Assembly (NCBI GenBank): GCA_964601505.1
Contig: CAZRNR010000007.1
Coordinates: 1-59,827 of the forward strand
Source of the DNA: an uncultured bacterium
GTDB taxonomy: Bacteria > Calescibacteriota > Calescibacteriia > Calescibacteriales > Calescibacteriaceae
Reading direction: 5' to 3'
DNA: 59,827 bases
This document shows positions 33,929 through 42,640 of this stretch, in pieces. Both the position numbers and the translations under genes were made by a program. Under the pieces are notes generated by a model. It did no database searches, had not been told where the DNA came from, and saw only the letters and a program-made list of their open reading frames with translations. How positions within the stretch are numbered: the stretch's first letter is position 1; every line of letters begins with the position of its first letter.

Positions 33929-34921
33929 ATGCTTGTTGAAGTAATTCACCTGAAAAAGTATTTTCCAGTAAGAAGAACATTTTTTGATCTTTTTTCTCCC
34001 AAATATGTTCATGCGGTTGATGATGTATCCTTTGATATCAAAAGGGGTGAATTCTTTGGGCTTGTTGGAGAATCTGGCTGTGGGAAGACCACAACAGGGC
34101 TTATACTTGCCGGTCTTATAAAACCAACTTCTGGAAAAATAATCTTTGATGGAAATGATATAACATTCCTGAAACTAAAGAATGAAATGAGAAGAAAAAT
34201 ACAGATGGTTTTTCAAAACCCTTTTTCATCTTTAAATCCTCGTATGAGGGTCAAGGATCTGATTACCGAAGGAATGATTATACACAAATTGGTTCCAAAA
34301 GATAAGGTTAATGATGCACTTGCAAAAATTTTAGATGATGTAGGTTTGGGTATGGAATTTGCGGAAAGATACCCAGATGAACTATCCGGTGGCCAAAGGC
34401 AAAGAGTTTGTATAGCAAGGTCAGTAGCGCTCAACCCTGAGTTTCTTATAGCTGATGAGCCGACGGCTTCTCTCGATGTCTCTGTCAGAGCACAAATCCT
34501 TGAGCTCTTTGATAAAATAAGAAAGAAATTTAACATGTCAATATTGTTCATAACACATGATATACATACAGTAAAAACTTATGCAGATAGAGTTGCTGTA
34601 ATGTATCTTGGAAAGATAGTTGAAATTGGCAAGAAAGAAGAAATATTCAGCAAACCATCTCATCCTTATACAAAAATACTTCTTGATTCTGTTCCAGATT
34701 TTGATAAGATAATTGATGAAGGGAGATATAGATTGAAAGGTATAGAAGGAGAGATTCCATCCCCATTAAATCCTCCATATGGATGCAGATTCAGAACAAG
34801 GTGTCCGTATGCAGACTCACTATGTGAGAAGCAGGAACCAGAAATAAATAAAATATCTGATACCCACTTTTCTGCTTGCCATTACTCAGAAAAAATTAAG
34901 GATTTAAAGATTAATCTATAA
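33929..34921 (+). CDS. Oligopeptide/dipeptide ABC transporter ATP-binding subunit (OppF/DppF-like)
   Basis: GESGCGKTT, LSGGQRQR, DEPT, HPYT, GEIPSP..PPYGCRFRTRC. Confidence 0.9.
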   Translation: MLVEVIHLKKYFPVRRTFFDLFSPKYVHAVDDVSFDIKRGEFFGLVGESGCGKTTTGLILAGLIKPTSGKIIFDGNDITFLKLKNEMRRKIQMVFQNPFSSLNPRMRVKDLITEGMIIHKLVPKDKVNDALAKILDDVGLGMEFAERYPDELSGGQRQRVCIARSVALNPEFLIADEPTASLDVSVRAQILELFDKIRKKFNMSILFITHDIHTVKTYADRVAVMYLGKIVEIGKKEEIFSKPSHPYTKILLDSVPDFDKIIDEGRYRLKGIEGEIPSPLNPPYGCRFRTRCPYADSLCEKQEPEINKISDTHFSACHYSEKIKDLKINL

Positions 34922-35597
34922 AAGAATTCAATGATATAGATGAAAAATCTTCAACAACTTTATGTTTTGAAGAAATTTCGATTCCATCTCTTAAAACTCT
35001 TATTGTTTTCATACCAGCTTCGCGTGAAGCATCTAATTCTTCTTCAACATCTGAAAGGAAAAGAATTTCCCGAGGTTTTAATTTTATCTCATCTGATATC
35101 TTCAGATATGAATCCTTATCTTTTTTGCTACCCATCTTCGTATCGAAGAAACCAGAAAATATATTTGTTATATCTCCGTAATCCGTATATTTGAAAAAGA
35201 GTTTTTGAGCTTTAACTGAACCCGATGAGAAAACATAAATTTTTATCCCGATTTCCTTCCATTCCATAAGCTTTATGTAAGCATCCTGATAAATATGTCC
35301 CTTAAGCTTACCATCCTTAAAACCTTCTTCCCAGATATATCCTTGAATCTCCTTGAGTATAGGTTCCTTCAAATCAGCATCTATCCACGATTCAAGAATT
35401 TTTATTGATTCCTCAATATCAACACTCTTTCCGAGCTTATCAGAGAGTTCTCTAATCGTTTTTTTCACAATATCTTCCTCTTTATGTTCCATCATAAAAC
35501 TTCTGAGGTTTTTCTTTGAGTACGGAAACATAACCTTTCTGACATATTCAAGAGATGATATTGTACCTTCGATATCGGTAAGAATAGCTTTTATCAT
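34911..35597 (-). CDS. mtnC: Enolase-phosphatase E1
   Basis: AILTDIEGT, LKEIQGYIW, SSGSVKAQKL, FLSDVEEELDA. Confidence 0.92.
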   Translation of the reverse strand: MIKAILTDIEGTISSLEYVRKVMFPYSKKNLRSFMMEHKEEDIVKKTIRELSDKLGKSVDIEESIKILESWIDADLKEPILKEIQGYIWEEGFKDGKLKGHIYQDAYIKLMEWKEIGIKIYVFSSGSVKAQKLFFKYTDYGDITNIFSGFFDTKMGSKKDKDSYLKISDEIKLKPREILFLSDVEEELDASREAGMKTIRVLRDGIEISSKHKVVEDFSSISLNSFID

Positions 35598-35626
35598 TTC
35601 TAAAGCCTATCTTTTTTATTCTTTTT

Positions 35627-36397
35627 TTATTTTTTTTTACCTTTTGATTTTTTTGATTTCTTAGTGAATTTCTTTGTTTTTTTAATCATTTTATCTTTTT
35701 TAGTTTTTCCTTTCTTTTCCGCTCTTTTTTTCTTATTTTTTCCTTCATCTGATTTCTTCTTTGCTTTCTCTTTCCGGAATTTCTTTTTCGAAGTAAATTT
35801 TATTTCTTCTTTGGGCTTTTCCTTTTGCGATTCATCTGAGGACATTTGAAATTGGATTAAATCATCGTGTGTTGGTATCCTTTTTGATATATCAGAACCT
35901 GTGAATTTCCCAACCCATCCTTCCGGTATTGTGAAGAATCTTATAGCCTTGAAGAATGGTTGTGTTCCCATATCGAACCAATGTTTTGTTTCAGCTGGAA
36001 TACTTATAAGATCTCCCTTCTCACAGATAACAGCATATACTTTATCATCTGAATGTATGTAGAATGTTCCACATCCATCAACAAAAAATCTTATCTCAAA
36101 GTCAGAATGAGTGTGTTCAGAAAGGAACATATTTCTAAATTCATCTTTTTTGGGATTATCTGGGGTTAAACTTACAACATCCATTGATTTAAAACTGAAT
36201 TTTGAATTGAGTGTTTCTATTTCAGTTTTATATGCTTCCATAATTTCGTTCTGACTTCCACTTCCCAAATTTCTGTTGCCGACATCCCATCTTTCAATGG
36301 AAATTCCGATTGATTTTAGCAGATCACATATTTTCCCATAATCATCTGTACCTTGTAATAATTTTCCAACTTCATCAAAAATAAAGAGTTTGCTCAT
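35627..36397 (-). CDS. mtnD: Acireductone dioxygenase with a 73-aa C-terminal extension ending in a Lys-rich tail
   Basis: FLSEHTHSDFEIRFF, PAETKHWF, AIRFF, GWVG cupin motifs. Confidence 0.9.
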   Translation of the reverse strand: MSKLFIFDEVGKLLQGTDDYGKICDLLKSIGISIERWDVGNRNLGSGSQNEIMEAYKTEIETLNSKFSFKSMDVVSLTPDNPKKDEFRNMFLSEHTHSDFEIRFFVDGCGTFYIHSDDKVYAVICEKGDLISIPAETKHWFDMGTQPFFKAIRFFTIPEGWVGKFTGSDISKRIPTHDDLIQFQMSSDESQKEKPKEEIKFTSKKKFRKEKAKKKSDEGKNKKKRAEKKGKTKKDKMIKKTKKFTKKSKKSKGKKK

Positions 36398-37020
36398 AGC
36401 TTTAAACCTCCTAATATTTTTAATTTTATCTCACATTCAAAGATGAAATCAAAAATTTCAAGATTCATTGCTGCCTCCGTTATACTTTCTCCCCAAGTAT
36501 AGATACCATGCTTCCTTATTAAAAAACCGTATGAATTCTTAAGTTTTTCAAAATAATTCTTTATTTTTTCGGATAGTTCCATCATATCCTGTGAATTTTC
36601 AAAGATAGGAACATCAATACAAACATCATGTGTCATTATTCCCCTGAAACCTTTCAAGAGCTCATATCCCTGAAGCCTTAAAATATTCTCTCTTTTAATC
36701 ACGGAGATCAGAGTTGAATTTATTGAATGAACATGTAAAACAGATCTTACATTTGGAAATAGCTTATATATTGATAAATGGAGCAGAGTTTCTGCAGATG
36801 ATCTTTTTGTCCCTTCGATTAATCTTCCATCTAAATCAATGATAACAAAATCTTCTTCTTTAAGATATCCTTTATGAACACCAGAGGCGGTTATGCATAT
36901 AAGATTTTCCTCTAATTTAACAGAGAAGTTTCCAGAAGTAGCTGGAACCCATCTTCTGCTATCAAAATCTTTCCCTAAATCTATAAGAGTCTTCAGTATT
37001 TCTCCATATTTATGTATCAT
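36394..37020 (-). CDS. mtnB: Methylthioribulose-1-phosphate dehydratase
   Basis: WVPATSGNFS, ITASGVHKG, SAETLLH, LHVHS, FLIRKHGIYTWG. Confidence 0.92.
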   Translation of the reverse strand: MIHKYGEILKTLIDLGKDFDSRRWVPATSGNFSVKLEENLICITASGVHKGYLKEEDFVIIDLDGRLIEGTKRSSAETLLHLSIYKLFPNVRSVLHVHSINSTLISVIKRENILRLQGYELLKGFRGIMTHDVCIDVPIFENSQDMMELSEKIKNYFEKLKNSYGFLIRKHGIYTWGESITEAAMNLEIFDFIFECEIKLKILGGLKL

Positions 37021-37214
37021 TGATTGATTATTTATTATTATTACTCTTTGTTAGATATTGCACTAATAACTTGAATGTTTTATAGAAAAATCATGTTTCT
37101 TACAAAGAATTTGATCTTTAGGCATCGCTTTATTTTTACGCGGTATTGATTAGAGAAAACATAAAAATGTGATCCTAATTACTATAAATTTTTTATTGTT
37201 ATATTGTGTCTTTT

Positions 37215-38261
37215 ATGAAATGTCTTGTAACAGGAGCAAATGGATTTATCGGTTCAAATGTGGTGAGAAAGCTAATGGAGAAGGGATATGAACCTGTAGC
37301 TTTTGTGAGGAATGGAAGTGACATATATAATCTAAGGGGCGAAGTTGAGATTAGGTATGGAAATTTACTAGATTCAGATAGCTTAGAGAAGGCTATGGAT
37401 GGTTGTAAGGTAGTTTTTCATGTTGGAGCTTTATATTCCTTTTGGGCTCGTGATACGACAATTTTCTATCAGACAAATGTTGGGAGTACAATCAAGATTC
37501 TGGAAATTGCAAAGAAAAAGAATATAGATAGAGTAGTGTATACAAGTACAACCGGAGCTATAGGACTTTCAAGAAATGAAAACCCTATAGATGAAACAGC
37601 TTTGTTTAATCCTCCACCTTGGTATTACGATGCTTGGAATTTGAAAGATCATTATGCGAGAAGCAAAATTCTTGCGCAAAAAGAGGTAATGGAAAGAGTA
37701 ATCAATGAAGGTTTAGATGTAGTCATAGTTTGTCCATCTGCCCCGATAGGATGGGGAGATTACAAACCAACTCCAACAGGCTTACTCATATTAAAGTTCC
37801 TTAACCGAGAAATACCATTTTATTCAGATGTTGGATTTTCCTTTGTGAATGTGAAAGATGTTGCTGATGCACATATTCTTGCACTTGAAAAAGGGAGGAA
37901 AGGAGAGATATATATTTTAGGAGGACATAATATTAAGCTTTCTGAATTTTTTTCCAAAATATCTGAGATTACTGGTTTGGGGAAGCCAATAAATTTAGGA
38001 AGGCATATACCAGCTTTTTTAGGATATGTTGTTGGTTTGATACTTGAGATATGGGCGAGGATAACAGGGAACCCACCAATTATAACACGCTCTCAAGCGA
38101 GAGCTTCTTTTCTGAATCTTTACTATTCTTCTCAGAAGGCTCAAAACGAATTAGGATATAAAATAACTCCTCTTGAATATGCCTTGAAAGATGCAATAAG
38201 CTACTTTATTGAACGAGGAATGGTCAAAAAGAGAATTGCTAAAAGACTAAAAATATCTTAA
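37215..38261 (+). CDS. NAD-dependent epimerase/dehydratase, HpnA/dihydroflavonol reductase-like
   Basis: VTGANGFIG, YTST, HYARSK, GDYKPTPTG, GERYIL-like GEIYILGG. Confidence 0.82.
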   Translation: MKCLVTGANGFIGSNVVRKLMEKGYEPVAFVRNGSDIYNLRGEVEIRYGNLLDSDSLEKAMDGCKVVFHVGALYSFWARDTTIFYQTNVGSTIKILEIAKKKNIDRVVYTSTTGAIGLSRNENPIDETALFNPPPWYYDAWNLKDHYARSKILAQKEVMERVINEGLDVVIVCPSAPIGWGDYKPTPTGLLILKFLNREIPFYSDVGFSFVNVKDVADAHILALEKGRKGEIYILGGHNIKLSEFFSKISEITGLGKPINLGRHIPAFLGYVVGLILEIWARITGNPPIITRSQARASFLNLYYSSQKAQNELGYKITPLEYALKDAISYFIERGMVKKRIAKRLKIS

Positions 38262-39562: not shown

Positions 39563-42500
39563 TCATCTGACTTTATCCACCTTATTTTTATTTTTTTGCT
39601 TTTTTACTGATCGTTGATTCTTTGCTTTTTGTTTATTCTTGGACTTGGATAATATTTTTCGTCTTGATGATTTTTTCATTTTTTTTCTTTTCTCTGTTAA
39701 ATCTTTAAGATTTTTTTGCCTTATAGCAGATTGTGCTGCAGCTATTCTTGCGGCAAGAACTCTGTAAGGCGAAACGCTAACATAGTTAAATCTGAGTGAA
39801 TTGAAAAATGATATGGAATCGGGATCACCACCATGTTCTCCACATACCCCAATTTTCAGATTCTGCTTTTGTTTTCTACCTTTATCAACAGCTATTTTTA
39901 TGAATTCACCAACTCCAGATGTATCTAAACTTGTGAATGGGTTATGCGGAAAGATAAGTTTGAGATAATCTGGCATAAATTTTCCAGAATCATCTCGTGA
40001 TATTCCTAAAACAGTCTGAGTTAAGTCGTTTGTCCCAAATGAGAAGAAATCAACATACTTAGCGATTTGATCTGCAAGAATACAGGCTCTGGGGAACTCT
40101 ATCATAGTTCCTATAGATATGGGAATTTTTACTTTCTCTGATTTTTCAACATCTTTAACTATCAGATCAAATACATTCCTGAAATACTTTATCTCCTCTG
40201 GATCTATTACATTTGGAAACATTATCTCTGGTATAACATTTTTCCCAGATTTTATAAGTTCTGATGCTGCTTCTACTATAGCTTCAATTTGCATACAATA
40301 TATTTCAGGGAATGATATTCCAACCCTTATTCCTCTGTTTCCAAGCATTGGGTTTTGTTCCTTCATTTTTTCTACATATTCTCTTATTTCTTCAACATTT
40401 GTCTGAGTCTTTTCTGCAGTTGATATGATCTCTTGTTCGCTTTTTGGTAAGAATTCGTGCAGCGGCGGATCAATTAACCTTATTGTTACAGGATAGTTCT
40501 CCATAACAGAAAGTATTTCTTTAAAATCACTCTTTATCCATTTTTTTATCCTATCAAGAGCATCAAAATATTCCTTCCTTACCTCTTTAAATTTTTGGAA
40601 TATAGATTTAGCACCATTTAGATTTGCTTTTTCCATCTCATCGAATACCTGACTATATTGTATGCCTCTTTGAAAAGATGGGATTACTCTCATGTGCTTT
40701 AAGGCAGTAATATGCTTGACTATTTCTGTAGAGCCGGTTTCAGCAGCTTCTTCCAGAGTTTTTATGAGTTCCTCATATAAATCCTTGTATTTTTGAGCAT
40801 ATATTATCATTTTTCTCATAATAGGTATTCTTTCTTCTTCAAAGAACATGTGTTCCGTTCTGAGGAGTCCTATACCTTCAGCTCCGAAACTTTTTGCGGT
40901 TTTAGCATCCCTTGGAGTATCAGCATTAGCTCTGATCTTCAAGGTTCTAATCCTATCGGATATCTTGAGTATATTGATGGCTTCTTGAGGGAGTTCTGAC
41001 GTTTTTATAGGAACTTCACCATAATATATATTTCCAGTATTTCCATCTATTGTTATTATTTCCTTTTCTCTTATAACTTGTTCGCCTATTTTTATACACC
41101 TTGATTCATAATCTATATTTATCTCCTCTGCACCAACTACTGCCGATTTTCCCATTGCTCTTGCAACTACTGCAGCATGTGATGTCTCTCCACCGCGAGC
41201 GGTTAGTATTCCTTTGGCACTGGCTATTCCTGCAATATCTTCAGGAGAAGTTTCGTGTCTTACAAGAATTACATCTTCCCCTTGCTTTGCCATTTTTTCA
41301 GCTTCATCTGGGAAAAGAACAATCTTACCAGAAACTGCCCCAGGAGAAGCTGCTAATCCCTTAGATATAGGTTTTTTCTGTAATCTTGTTTCATCTATGA
41401 CGGGAAATAAGAGCCCATATATACTTTTAGGATTTAATCTCATTATACCTTCATTCTCACTTATTATTCTCTCCTTTATAAAATCATGAATTATCTTTAT
41501 GTTTGCCCTAGCTGTTCTCTTCCCTGACCTCGTTTGAAGTATCCATACTTTAGAATTCTCAATTGTGAATTCTATATCTTGCATATCCTTGTAGTGTCTT
41601 TCAAGGTTTTCTGATATCTTCTCTATTTCTTTGTAAGCTTTTGGCATAAGTTCCTGGAGGGTTGGAAGATGAGCATTTGCCTGACTCTTGGAGGCGTCAT
41701 TTATGGCATGAGGAGTCCTTATTCCAGCGACAACATCTTCTCCCTGAGCGTTTGGAAGAAAGTTCCCCCAAATAGTCTTTTCTCCCGTATTCGGATTCCT
41801 TGTGAATAGAACACCAGTTCCAGAATTATCTCCCATGTTTCCAAAAACCATCGCTACTATATTTACCGCAGTACCTATGTCATCAGGTAACCCGTGAATT
41901 TTCCTGTATGTTACAGCTCTTTCTCCATTCCACGAACGGAATACAGCTTCAATAGCAATCATGACCTGCTCAAGTGTGTCTTCAGGAATAGTTATACTGC
42001 GTTCCTTCAAAATTTCTTGATATCTTTCAACAATGAGTTTAAGAACTTCAGCAGGTATATCACGATCTTTGATTCTGGTATTCCTCTCATCTGAAACATT
42101 ATTATATGCCTGAGTGATAGAAGAAAATCTACCTTCAATGTATCCTTCATAAGCATTCTTCCACCTTTCAAATTCCTTTTCAAAAACTTCCTTTTCTACT
42201 TTGAGAGCTATTGTAGAGAACATCTGAATGAACCTTCTGTATGTGTCGTATGCGAATCTTTCATCAATGCTCTTTAGATATTCAAAAGATTTCTGATTTG
42301 TACCAACATTTAATATAGTGTCCATCATACCGGGCATTGAGACAGGAGCACCTGAACGAACGGAAACAAGGAGTGGAAAATCTTTTCCCCGCATCTTCTT
42401 CAGAGCTTCCGCTAATTTTTTTAGCGAAAGATCAACGTCTTTTTCTATCTTTCTCAAGAAAGATTGACCGTTTTTCATATACTCCCTGCAAGCTTCAGTG

Positions 42501-42640
42501 GTAATTATAAATCCTGGTGGAACAGGTATATTATTTTTGGCCATTTCGCTAAGCTGGGCTCCCTTATTCCCGAGAAGATGAGCAAGATCCTTACCACCTT
42601 CTGTTTTTCCTATACCAAAAAACCAAATATATTTTGACAT
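39563..42640 (-). CDS. ppdK: Pyruvate phosphate dikinase with internal insertions and a basic C-terminal tail
   Basis: LLVSVRSGAPVSMPGMMDT, GEDVVAGIRTP, GGETSHAAVVAR, RTEHMFF, SFGTNDLTQ, CGEHGGDP. Confidence 0.96.
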   Translation of the reverse strand: MSKYIWFFGIGKTEGGKDLAHLLGNKGAQLSEMAKNNIPVPPGFIITTEACREYMKNGQSFLRKIEKDVDLSLKKLAEALKKMRGKDFPLLVSVRSGAPVSMPGMMDTILNVGTNQKSFEYLKSIDERFAYDTYRRFIQMFSTIALKVEKEVFEKEFERWKNAYEGYIEGRFSSITQAYNNVSDERNTRIKDRDIPAEVLKLIVERYQEILKERSITIPEDTLEQVMIAIEAVFRSWNGERAVTYRKIHGLPDDIGTAVNIVAMVFGNMGDNSGTGVLFTRNPNTGEKTIWGNFLPNAQGEDVVAGIRTPHAINDASKSQANAHLPTLQELMPKAYKEIEKISENLERHYKDMQDIEFTIENSKVWILQTRSGKRTARANIKIIHDFIKERIISENEGIMRLNPKSIYGLLFPVIDETRLQKKPISKGLAASPGAVSGKIVLFPDEAEKMAKQGEDVILVRHETSPEDIAGIASAKGILTARGGETSHAAVVARAMGKSAVVGAEEINIDYESRCIKIGEQVIREKEIITIDGNTGNIYYGEVPIKTSELPQEAINILKISDRIRTLKIRANADTPRDAKTAKSFGAEGIGLLRTEHMFFEEERIPIMRKMIIYAQKYKDLYEELIKTLEEAAETGSTEIVKHITALKHMRVIPSFQRGIQYSQVFDEMEKANLNGAKSIFQKFKEVRKEYFDALDRIKKWIKSDFKEILSVMENYPVTIRLIDPPLHEFLPKSEQEIISTAEKTQTNVEEIREYVEKMKEQNPMLGNRGIRVGISFPEIYCMQIEAIVEAASELIKSGKNVIPEIMFPNVIDPEEIKYFRNVFDLIVKDVEKSEKVKIPISIGTMIEFPRACILADQIAKYVDFFSFGTNDLTQTVLGISRDDSGKFMPDYLKLIFPHNPFTSLDTSGVGEFIKIAVDKGRKQKQNLKIGVCGEHGGDPDSISFFNSLRFNYVSVSPYRVLAARIAAAQSAIRQKNLKDLTEKRKKMKKSSRRKILSKSKNKQKAKNQRSVKKQKNKNKVDKVR

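Follow-up and report, generated by a model that had tools for sequence, protein, structure and literature searches.

A conserved, clade-specific lysine-rich tail on the acireductone dioxygenase MtnD of Candidatus Calescibacterium

The cupin enzyme acireductone dioxygenase (ARD, MtnD) is compact and has been studied in depth, and no polycationic tail on MtnD, nor any published report of a tailed MtnD or of lysine tails in Calescibacteria, was met in the literature searched. The mtnD gene (35627..36397, reverse strand) of the 59,827-nucleotide stretch analysed here (contig CAZRNR010000007.1 of assembly GCA_964601505.1, called the window in what follows) encodes an enzyme with a polycationic C-terminal tail which is real, conserved and specific to its clade, and for which disorder is predicted. 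The host genome, with a GC content of 35%, belongs to Candidatus Calescibacterium, a genus assignment taken from the NCBI label on the homologue P0003. The charge, length and layout of the tail have been kept without its sequence, and other metabolic enzymes of this bacterial family are tailed too, which adds to an emerging picture of sticky positive tails on ordinary bacterial enzymes. The reading that we favour, with a rough probability of 45%, is that the tail may be a selected polycationic disordered segment which binds polyanions, most likely nucleic acid. If this were true, with the enzyme tethered to nucleic acid or held in charge-driven assemblies at about 80 °C, it would bear on the organisation of the hyperthermophile cytoplasm; disordered regions are generally scarce in hyperthermophiles. 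The finding is a modest one, since such tails are a known kind of feature and the function of the MtnD tail is inferred. In a term search of two Calescibacterium papers (PMC4791363 and PMC11696919), the words 'lysine' and 'methionine' occur zero times in each.

From its ATG start to its TAA stop, the open reading frame (ORF) specifies 256 amino acids (aa), a dioxygenase followed by a tail, and it lies on the reverse strand, like every feature below for which no other strand is given. Residues 1-183 (35849..36397) make up the ARD/cupin core, as recognised by the family PF03079 and by alignment with the structure 1zrr, with a net charge of -8, while residues 184-256 (35630..35848) form the C-terminal extension. 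This 73-aa tail falls into a Ser/Glu/Lys linker of mixed charge (residues 184-205, 35783..35848, net +1) and a polybasic part predicted to be disordered (residues 206-256, 35630..35782, net +25). Taken as a whole it contains 34 Lys, 2 Arg and 10 acidic residues, a net charge of +26, and it shifts the protein from the -8 of the core to +18. A preliminary description made from the sequence alone had counted 30 Lys and 2 Arg in the last 53 residues of a 73-aa extension, with which an exact recount agrees, the same 53 residues holding also 3 Glu and 2 Asp. The tail is rich in Lys, Ser, Thr and Glu (Ser and Thr together 11), and includes 2 Ala, 1 Pro and 7 scattered hydrophobic residues (Phe, Ile and Met). 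Of the 1719 genome ORFs with 120 aa or more, that of MtnD has the most Lys-rich C-terminus: its final 50 residues include 27 Lys, where the genome-wide mean is 5.1 (standard deviation 2.6) and the runner-up has 23; this richness is far above what a composition of 35% GC alone yields.

The tail is predicted to be intrinsically disordered on the basis of an AlphaFold2 model, where the predicted local distance difference test (pLDDT) score is above 90 for residues 1-180 and below 50 for residues 187-248, with no secondary structure past residue 181. When the tails of the window protein and of its congener G001 were searched alone against Pfam, zero families were obtained at E<=10, and a search of the ESM Atlas by features with residues 184-256 gave no usable match, its structural hits being short floppy or helical stretches in unrelated proteins, without meaning. 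At the DNA level, Tandem Repeats Finder (TRF) detected no clean tandem unit, only a weak low-complexity periodicity of 8-11 nucleotides (nt) at 35608-35745, and avoidance of long A runs was not significant in the window tail (P 0.36) or in the G001 tail (P 0.15).

The enzyme part looks like an ordinary, intact and working Fe/Ni MtnD of methionine salvage, with activity predicted from sequence, and the catalytic core should act like those of other MtnDs. In fact, the identification as MtnD made in the preliminary description was borne out by the ARD core, by the four metal ligands and by the mtnB-mtnD-mtnC operon, all of them present. PF03079 (ARD) matched residues 22-162 with 119.5 bits (E 2.1e-34, cut-off 27); in the NCBIfam search the MtnD protein matched no family, and mtnB and mtnC scored above equivalog cut-offs. 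The nearest solved structure is PDB 1zrr_A, the ARD of Klebsiella oxytoca (E-2/E-2'), residues 22-175 of MtnD aligning with residues 23-176 of 1zrr at E 1.1e-46. In this alignment, H95, H97, E101 and H139 correspond to the His/His/Glu/His metal-ligand residues of 1zrr, which we take to be those numbered H96, H98, E102 and H140 in K. oxytoca, and in an alignment of 41 sequences their columns show either no variation or a conservation of at least 90%. The likeness to the K. oxytoca enzyme thus lies in the core and in the ligand positions, and the window MtnD is moreover encoded together with mtnB and mtnC; the K. oxytoca protein, however, has 179 aa and ends where the window tail begins, with no counterpart of the 73-aa polycationic extension.

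The distribution of the tail was followed among relatives, as the preliminary description had proposed, and the tail is kept in the congener G001 and in a third lineage, P0128. MtnD was found in 4 of 41 related genomes and, within the family, in one of the six other genomes, that of G001, where the same mtnB-mtnD-mtnC order is present and a 254-aa MtnD carries a 72-aa K-rich tail; the window MtnD as query gave no match in the family genomes G002-G006, each 82-87% complete. P0128, an N-terminally cut protein 72% identical to the window MtnD, was obtained from a search of 1.84 billion representatives and has an 87-aa tail. The statement that a typical MtnD has about 180 aa and no tail held as well, since 115 of the 120 homologues listed have 173-193 aa; two of the 120 are K-tailed (P0001 and P0003), both from this clade. 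The 150 representatives listed from the larger search include 16 without the HW[FY][DE] landmark, which were left unscored, and among the other 134 only P0128, again of this clade, is K-tailed. Although 29 of these 134 have at least 60 residues past the landmark, P0128 alone is K-rich there (Lys fraction 0.46), the other 28 long extensions being MtnD-MtnC fusions or GC-rich read-through. All nine loci outside the clade end 36-49 aa past HWFD, compared with 114 aa in the window MtnD, and scans of genome contigs and of metagenome contigs gave four relatives each, all tail-less, the P0128 locus not being recovered. Among the MtnDs examined, the tail is therefore shown to be restricted to this clade. 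Its nearest tail-less relatives are Aquificota-labelled MtnDs of 183-185 aa (P0004, P0006, P0012 and others), whose cores are 64-66% identical to that of the window and which end 2-3 residues past the HDEI(V/L) motif.

The tail is also found in independent assemblies. Six sequence variants of the window MtnD occur in the protein collection, all of 256 aa, one of them present on 18 contigs, which come from NCBI, JGI/IMG, Logan and ENA, and three variants of the G001-type MtnD all have 254 aa, so that no length variant exists among the nine protein variants of the two species. As regards sequencing runs, 20 of the 24 listed, from 10 studies, contain all or part of the stretch, 16 of these contain half or more of the words sampled from 35400-36500, and 13 were flagged as possible sources; all runs were read as assembled contigs, which give no information on bins without coverage, on the level of expression or on where transcripts end. 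An independent DNA contig (X16) spans 35320-35720, including the tail part 35627-35720, with six substitutions and no gap, and contigs of a run from a metatranscriptomic RNA library (X17) span 35329-35724, 35747-35925 and 36068-36373, a coverage which takes in the core-tail junction and the greater part of the tail. In run X14 no contig aligned, and the matches in run X9 were limited to pieces of 18-19 nt within long, unrelated contigs.

The comparison of the three lineages brings out which properties have been retained. The window tail (73 aa, net +26) carries +1 in its first 22 residues and +25 in the rest; the corresponding values are +3 and +23 for the G001 tail (72 aa, net +26), and -2 and +33 for that of P0128 (87 aa, net +31). 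By contrast, the sequences of the window and G001 tails are no more alike than chance would give: with cores 63% identical, these tails have 23 identical positions, while 24.4 +/- 2.8 are expected from shuffled tails and 221 of 300 shuffles reach 23. The tail of P0128, which is closer, can still be aligned in part with that of the window, the two sharing 35 positions versus 27.6 +/- 2.7 after shuffling, a value reached by 1 of 300 shuffles. On the coding strand, both the window and the G001 tail contain 61-64% A and 10-12% T, and only 67 (window) and 272 (G001) of 20000 mononucleotide shuffles stay open in frame; in the window the tail frame is free of stops, while the other two frames contain 2 and 8. 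Selection appears to act on the frame, the length, the Lys content and the net charge of the tail, and not on its sequence. A sequence left free while these properties are held would be expected of a disordered region selected for its bulk properties, although weak constraint alone would yield this pattern too.

Furthermore, K-rich tails recur on metabolic enzymes of this genome and family, and that of MtnD is no isolated oddity. Strongly basic segments are otherwise rare in the genome, only nine ORFs of at least 100 aa having a 30-aa segment with a net charge of at least +13. Three of these were taken for ribosomal proteins by size alone; among the carriers that are not ribosomal are MtnD, pyruvate phosphate dikinase (PPDK), an isochorismatase/nicotinamidase-like enzyme and a DksA/TraR-type zinc-finger protein. 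The PPDK (1025 aa, 39563..42640, tail roughly 39566..39715) has a K/R-rich tail of 64 residues past its S-x-SP-[FY]-R motif, with 19 Lys and 7 Arg, and K-rich tails are found on the PPDK of all seven family genomes (48-77 residues past the motif, 14-29 Lys). Outside the family, they occur in 3 of the 19 unrelated genomes with a readable C-terminus (L036, L039 and L043), four further loci being unreadable. The nicotinamidase-like enzyme (321 aa, contig C6:29475-30440, forward strand) has a Pfam domain ending at residue 184, and the remaining 137 or so residues form a K-rich extension, which is present in the window genome and in all five other family genomes searched (L010-L014), with 43-50 Lys in the last 150 residues. 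These extensions end in a shared GKGGGK-x-M...KK stretch and look more like a conserved module than like pure low complexity. In the DksA/TraR-type protein (274 aa, contig C6:60664-61488, reverse strand) a long poly-acidic stretch precedes a K-rich C-terminus, whose 23 Lys among the final 50 residues place it second in the genome for Lys content. As separate observations, PPDK matches outside the family split at query residues of about 615-690, where there seems to be a family insertion of about 70 aa, and an ORF of 296 aa (contig C10:17687-18577, reverse strand) with an Arg-rich stretch, eight consecutive Arg included, contains the most basic 30-aa segment of the genome, net +17.

According to the favoured reading, MtnD would have gained in this clade a C-terminal disordered tail of about 22 mixed-charge residues followed by about 50 residues of net charge near +25. 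Such a tail would give an enzyme whose core is acidic (-8, as against +18 for the whole protein) a non-specific electrostatic affinity for cellular polyanions, among which RNA or nucleoid DNA would be the likeliest target, and binding would tether or concentrate MtnD at RNA or at the nucleoid, possibly in charge-driven assemblies. That a segment of about 50 residues at about +25 may bind polyanions follows on physical grounds alone, and the preference for nucleic acid as the partner comes from a comparison with other Lys-tailed proteins, namely TopA, Ku and RhlE helicases. The Lys-repeat C-terminal tails of Streptomyces TopA (topoisomerase I) and Mycobacterium smegmatis Ku are reported to stabilise or modulate DNA binding (PMC5714199 and PMC3553676), and the RhlE helicases (PMC11260450) offer a further analogue for nucleic-acid binding. 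The MtnD tail resembles those of TopA and Ku (PAKKA) in being a low-complexity, Lys-rich, lineage-specific C-terminal tail of an enzyme; nevertheless, both of these enzymes work on DNA and have tails made up of K/A/P repeats, whereas MtnD is a small-molecule dioxygenase with a repeat-free, K/S/T/E-rich tail.

A more far-reaching version would see the tails as a shared 'address label' placed on chosen soluble enzymes (MtnD, PPDK, the nicotinamidase-like enzyme and the DksA-like protein) in Calescibacteria living near 80 °C. Docking on RNA or on the nucleoid could then build a charge-driven metabolic compartment, or abundant enzymes could serve as polycations protecting AT-rich nucleic acid against heat, and MtnD would have been labelled only after the mtnBDC operon entered the genus. 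This idea is speculative and, in our estimation, unlikely to be right.

The motifs S/TPKK, KPAA and PAKKA mark the H1-like Lys/Ala/Pro-rich tails, and the expression 'histone H1-like' applied to the MtnD tail in the preliminary description is only partly apt: the positive charge and the predicted disorder stand, whereas the tail has no Pfam match and none of the K/A/P repeats. Bacterial H1-like proteins such as AlgP (PMC9239181) have in common with it a high Lys content, a strong positive charge and presumed disorder. Compared with that family (linker-histone C-terminal domain, Hc1 and AlgP types), the S/TPKK, KPAA and PAKKA repeats are all missing from the MtnD tail. The protein belongs to the ARD/MtnD family and to no histone-H1-like family, the resemblance being one of charge only.

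Several observations weigh against binding to nucleic acid by a selected tail. MtnD has, to our knowledge, no known involvement with nucleic acids, the genome encodes an ordinary HU protein, and the tail matches no known binding domain in Pfam at the threshold given above. Libraries such as that of run X17 may contain DNA, and its contigs are no proof of transcription or of translation; moreover, one of them has a frame-breaking 1-nt insertion in the T6 run at 35696..35701 (A6 on the coding strand). The depth there is about 5, the site lies 32 nt from the contig end, and the insertion is absent from the X16 DNA contig, with which the X17 contig shares single-nucleotide polymorphisms (SNPs); we take the extra T as an error or, less likely, as transcriptional slippage. 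Among the variants of the species, differences affect 7 of 73 tail positions compared with 1 of 183 core positions, and all three SNPs in 35627-35720, read by hand, are nonsynonymous (T245A, K243R and D235G), a pattern which fits weak constraint and a charge-only constraint equally well.

Two rival explanations deny the tail a function. An assembly or annotation artefact, in the form of a frameshift or of a real stop overlooked around residue 183, could invoke the low-depth RNA-library contig with its homopolymer insertion, but it has a negligible probability and is already refuted at the DNA level: many independent assemblies give the same 256-aa product, the X16 contig crosses its part of the tail without a gap, two further lineages keep the tail, no in-frame stop is present and the other frames are closed. 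The assembly frameshift, which the preliminary description had named as a possible refutation, fails in particular because the frame is kept in nine variants of two species and in the third lineage. Near-neutral accretion deserves closer attention, although we consider it rather unlikely. By this account, stop loss or slippage extended mtnD into the A-rich stretch between mtnD and mtnC, leaving a harmless tail devoid of function. The lack of sequence conservation between species would agree with it, as would the concentration of within-species amino-acid variation in the tail, the weak short-period periodicity found by TRF, such as slippage would leave, the near abutment of mtnD and mtnC in a tail-less relative (locus L003, gap of 10 nt), and the use of AAA for 25 of the 34 tail Lys codons, near the genome ratio of 0.67. 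Neutral DNA at 63-72% core identity should, however, drift towards equal A and T and gain stops, whereas two species have retained the A-rich, T-poor composition and the open frame; three lineages agree closely in tail length and net charge, the nine protein variants show no change of length, and PPDK and the nicotinamidase-like enzyme have kept their K-rich tails throughout three genera. Neutral accretion is weakened as an explanation by the composition and charge that the tail has retained.

The other rivals concern the partner of the tail. It might act on proteins, folding on or bridging acidic cupin cores (as an aid to self-association, solubility or heat stability, or in autoregulation), or gathering MtnB and MtnC. 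Charge pairing within or between molecules is physically plausible with a core of -8 and a tail of +26, and about 10 of the 150 representatives listed are MtnD-MtnC fusions of 389-456 aa. MtnD being fused to MtnC at this same end in many bacteria, proximity of the two enzymes would seem to be recurrently favoured. In these fusions (P0132, P0139 and P0162 among them) the extension likewise starts directly after the cupin core, but it is a folded haloacid dehalogenase (HAD) enolase-phosphatase, while in the window it is a Lys tail predicted to be disordered, with a separate mtnC 29 nt downstream. Against an action on proteins, tail-less relatives manage with even more acidic cores (-11), AlphaFold2 places the tail nowhere confidently, and MtnB and MtnC are nearly neutral (-1 and -4) and make no obvious electrostatic partners. 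The scaffolding of MtnB and MtnC, put forward in the preliminary description, lacks a basis in charge and is weakened accordingly, and we regard action on proteins in general as unlikely. Polybasic stretches which target membranes resemble a segment of net +25 over about 50 residues with scattered hydrophobics, as seen here (7 Phe, Ile and Met), and the tail might therefore anchor MtnD to the cytoplasmic membrane on its anionic inner side. This appears improbable, given that no amphipathic helix or other secondary structure is predicted, that MtnD converts a soluble substrate into soluble products, and that the proteins of the operon are not membrane-associated. Binding to polyphosphate, also suggested earlier, would have a model in the H1-like Lys-rich tails which are reported to associate with polyphosphate granules in Pseudomonas (AlgP; PMC9239181). 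The MtnD tail has no KPAA-type repeats, however, and none of the 6 family genomes searched (G000-G005, each 82-87% complete) gave a match to the polyphosphate kinases PPK1 (PF02503) and PPK2 (PF03976), although the search scored in control genomes, so that the suggestion lost ground and is now very improbable. With polyphosphate and MtnB/MtnC weakened, the partners which remain are nucleic acid, anionic membrane and the acidic core of MtnD itself.

Regarding the origin of the tail, the tailed MtnDs and the Aquificota-labelled proteins form one supported clade (99/97), within which the G001 core is 76% identical to Aquificota-labelled proteins, compared with 63% to the window core. On this basis, exchange of mtnD between Calescibacterium and Aquificota seems likely. 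In a careful tree of 5 tailed sequences, 16 nearest tail-less relatives and 6 outgroups, long-branch sequences having been left out, the tailed ones form a basal grade, which implies two changes, and they are united in 0% of 200 bootstrap trees; a single clade of tailed sequences was nonetheless not rejected by the approximately unbiased (AU) test (p 0.283). MtnD was not found in G002-G006, which, taken with the supported clade and the 76% identity, suggests gene exchange between co-occurring hot-spring lineages. In the one tail-less operon of this kind that was read in an outside genome (G025, locus L003), mtnD and mtnC are separated by 10 nt, and if abutting genes were the older state, the tail would amount to about 220 nt inserted at that junction.

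In the window, mtnB (36394..37020), encoding a methylthioribulose-1-phosphate dehydratase of 208 aa (net charge -1), is matched by NF006672 with 247.8 bits (cut-off 226) and by TIGR03328 with 233.7 bits, and its stop overlaps the start of mtnD by 4 nt. From the stop of mtnD an A-rich spacer of 29 nt (35598..35626) leads to the start of mtnC (34911..35597), the gene of a 228-aa acireductone synthase (enolase-phosphatase, net charge -4) matched by TIGR01691 with 242.8 bits (cut-off 128.1), and an MtnA-family gene is found elsewhere in the genome, on contig C3. A search against Rfam across the whole window gave 3 tRNAs only, with no match in the tail. In a scan of 34700-37400, 7 promoter-like sites were obtained (13.2 in shuffled sequences) and 2 terminator-like ones (1.2 in shuffled sequences), none of either kind on the coding strand within the tail or the mtnD-mtnC spacer, and a weak promoter-like match lies on the forward strand at 35569-35597, just below this spacer.

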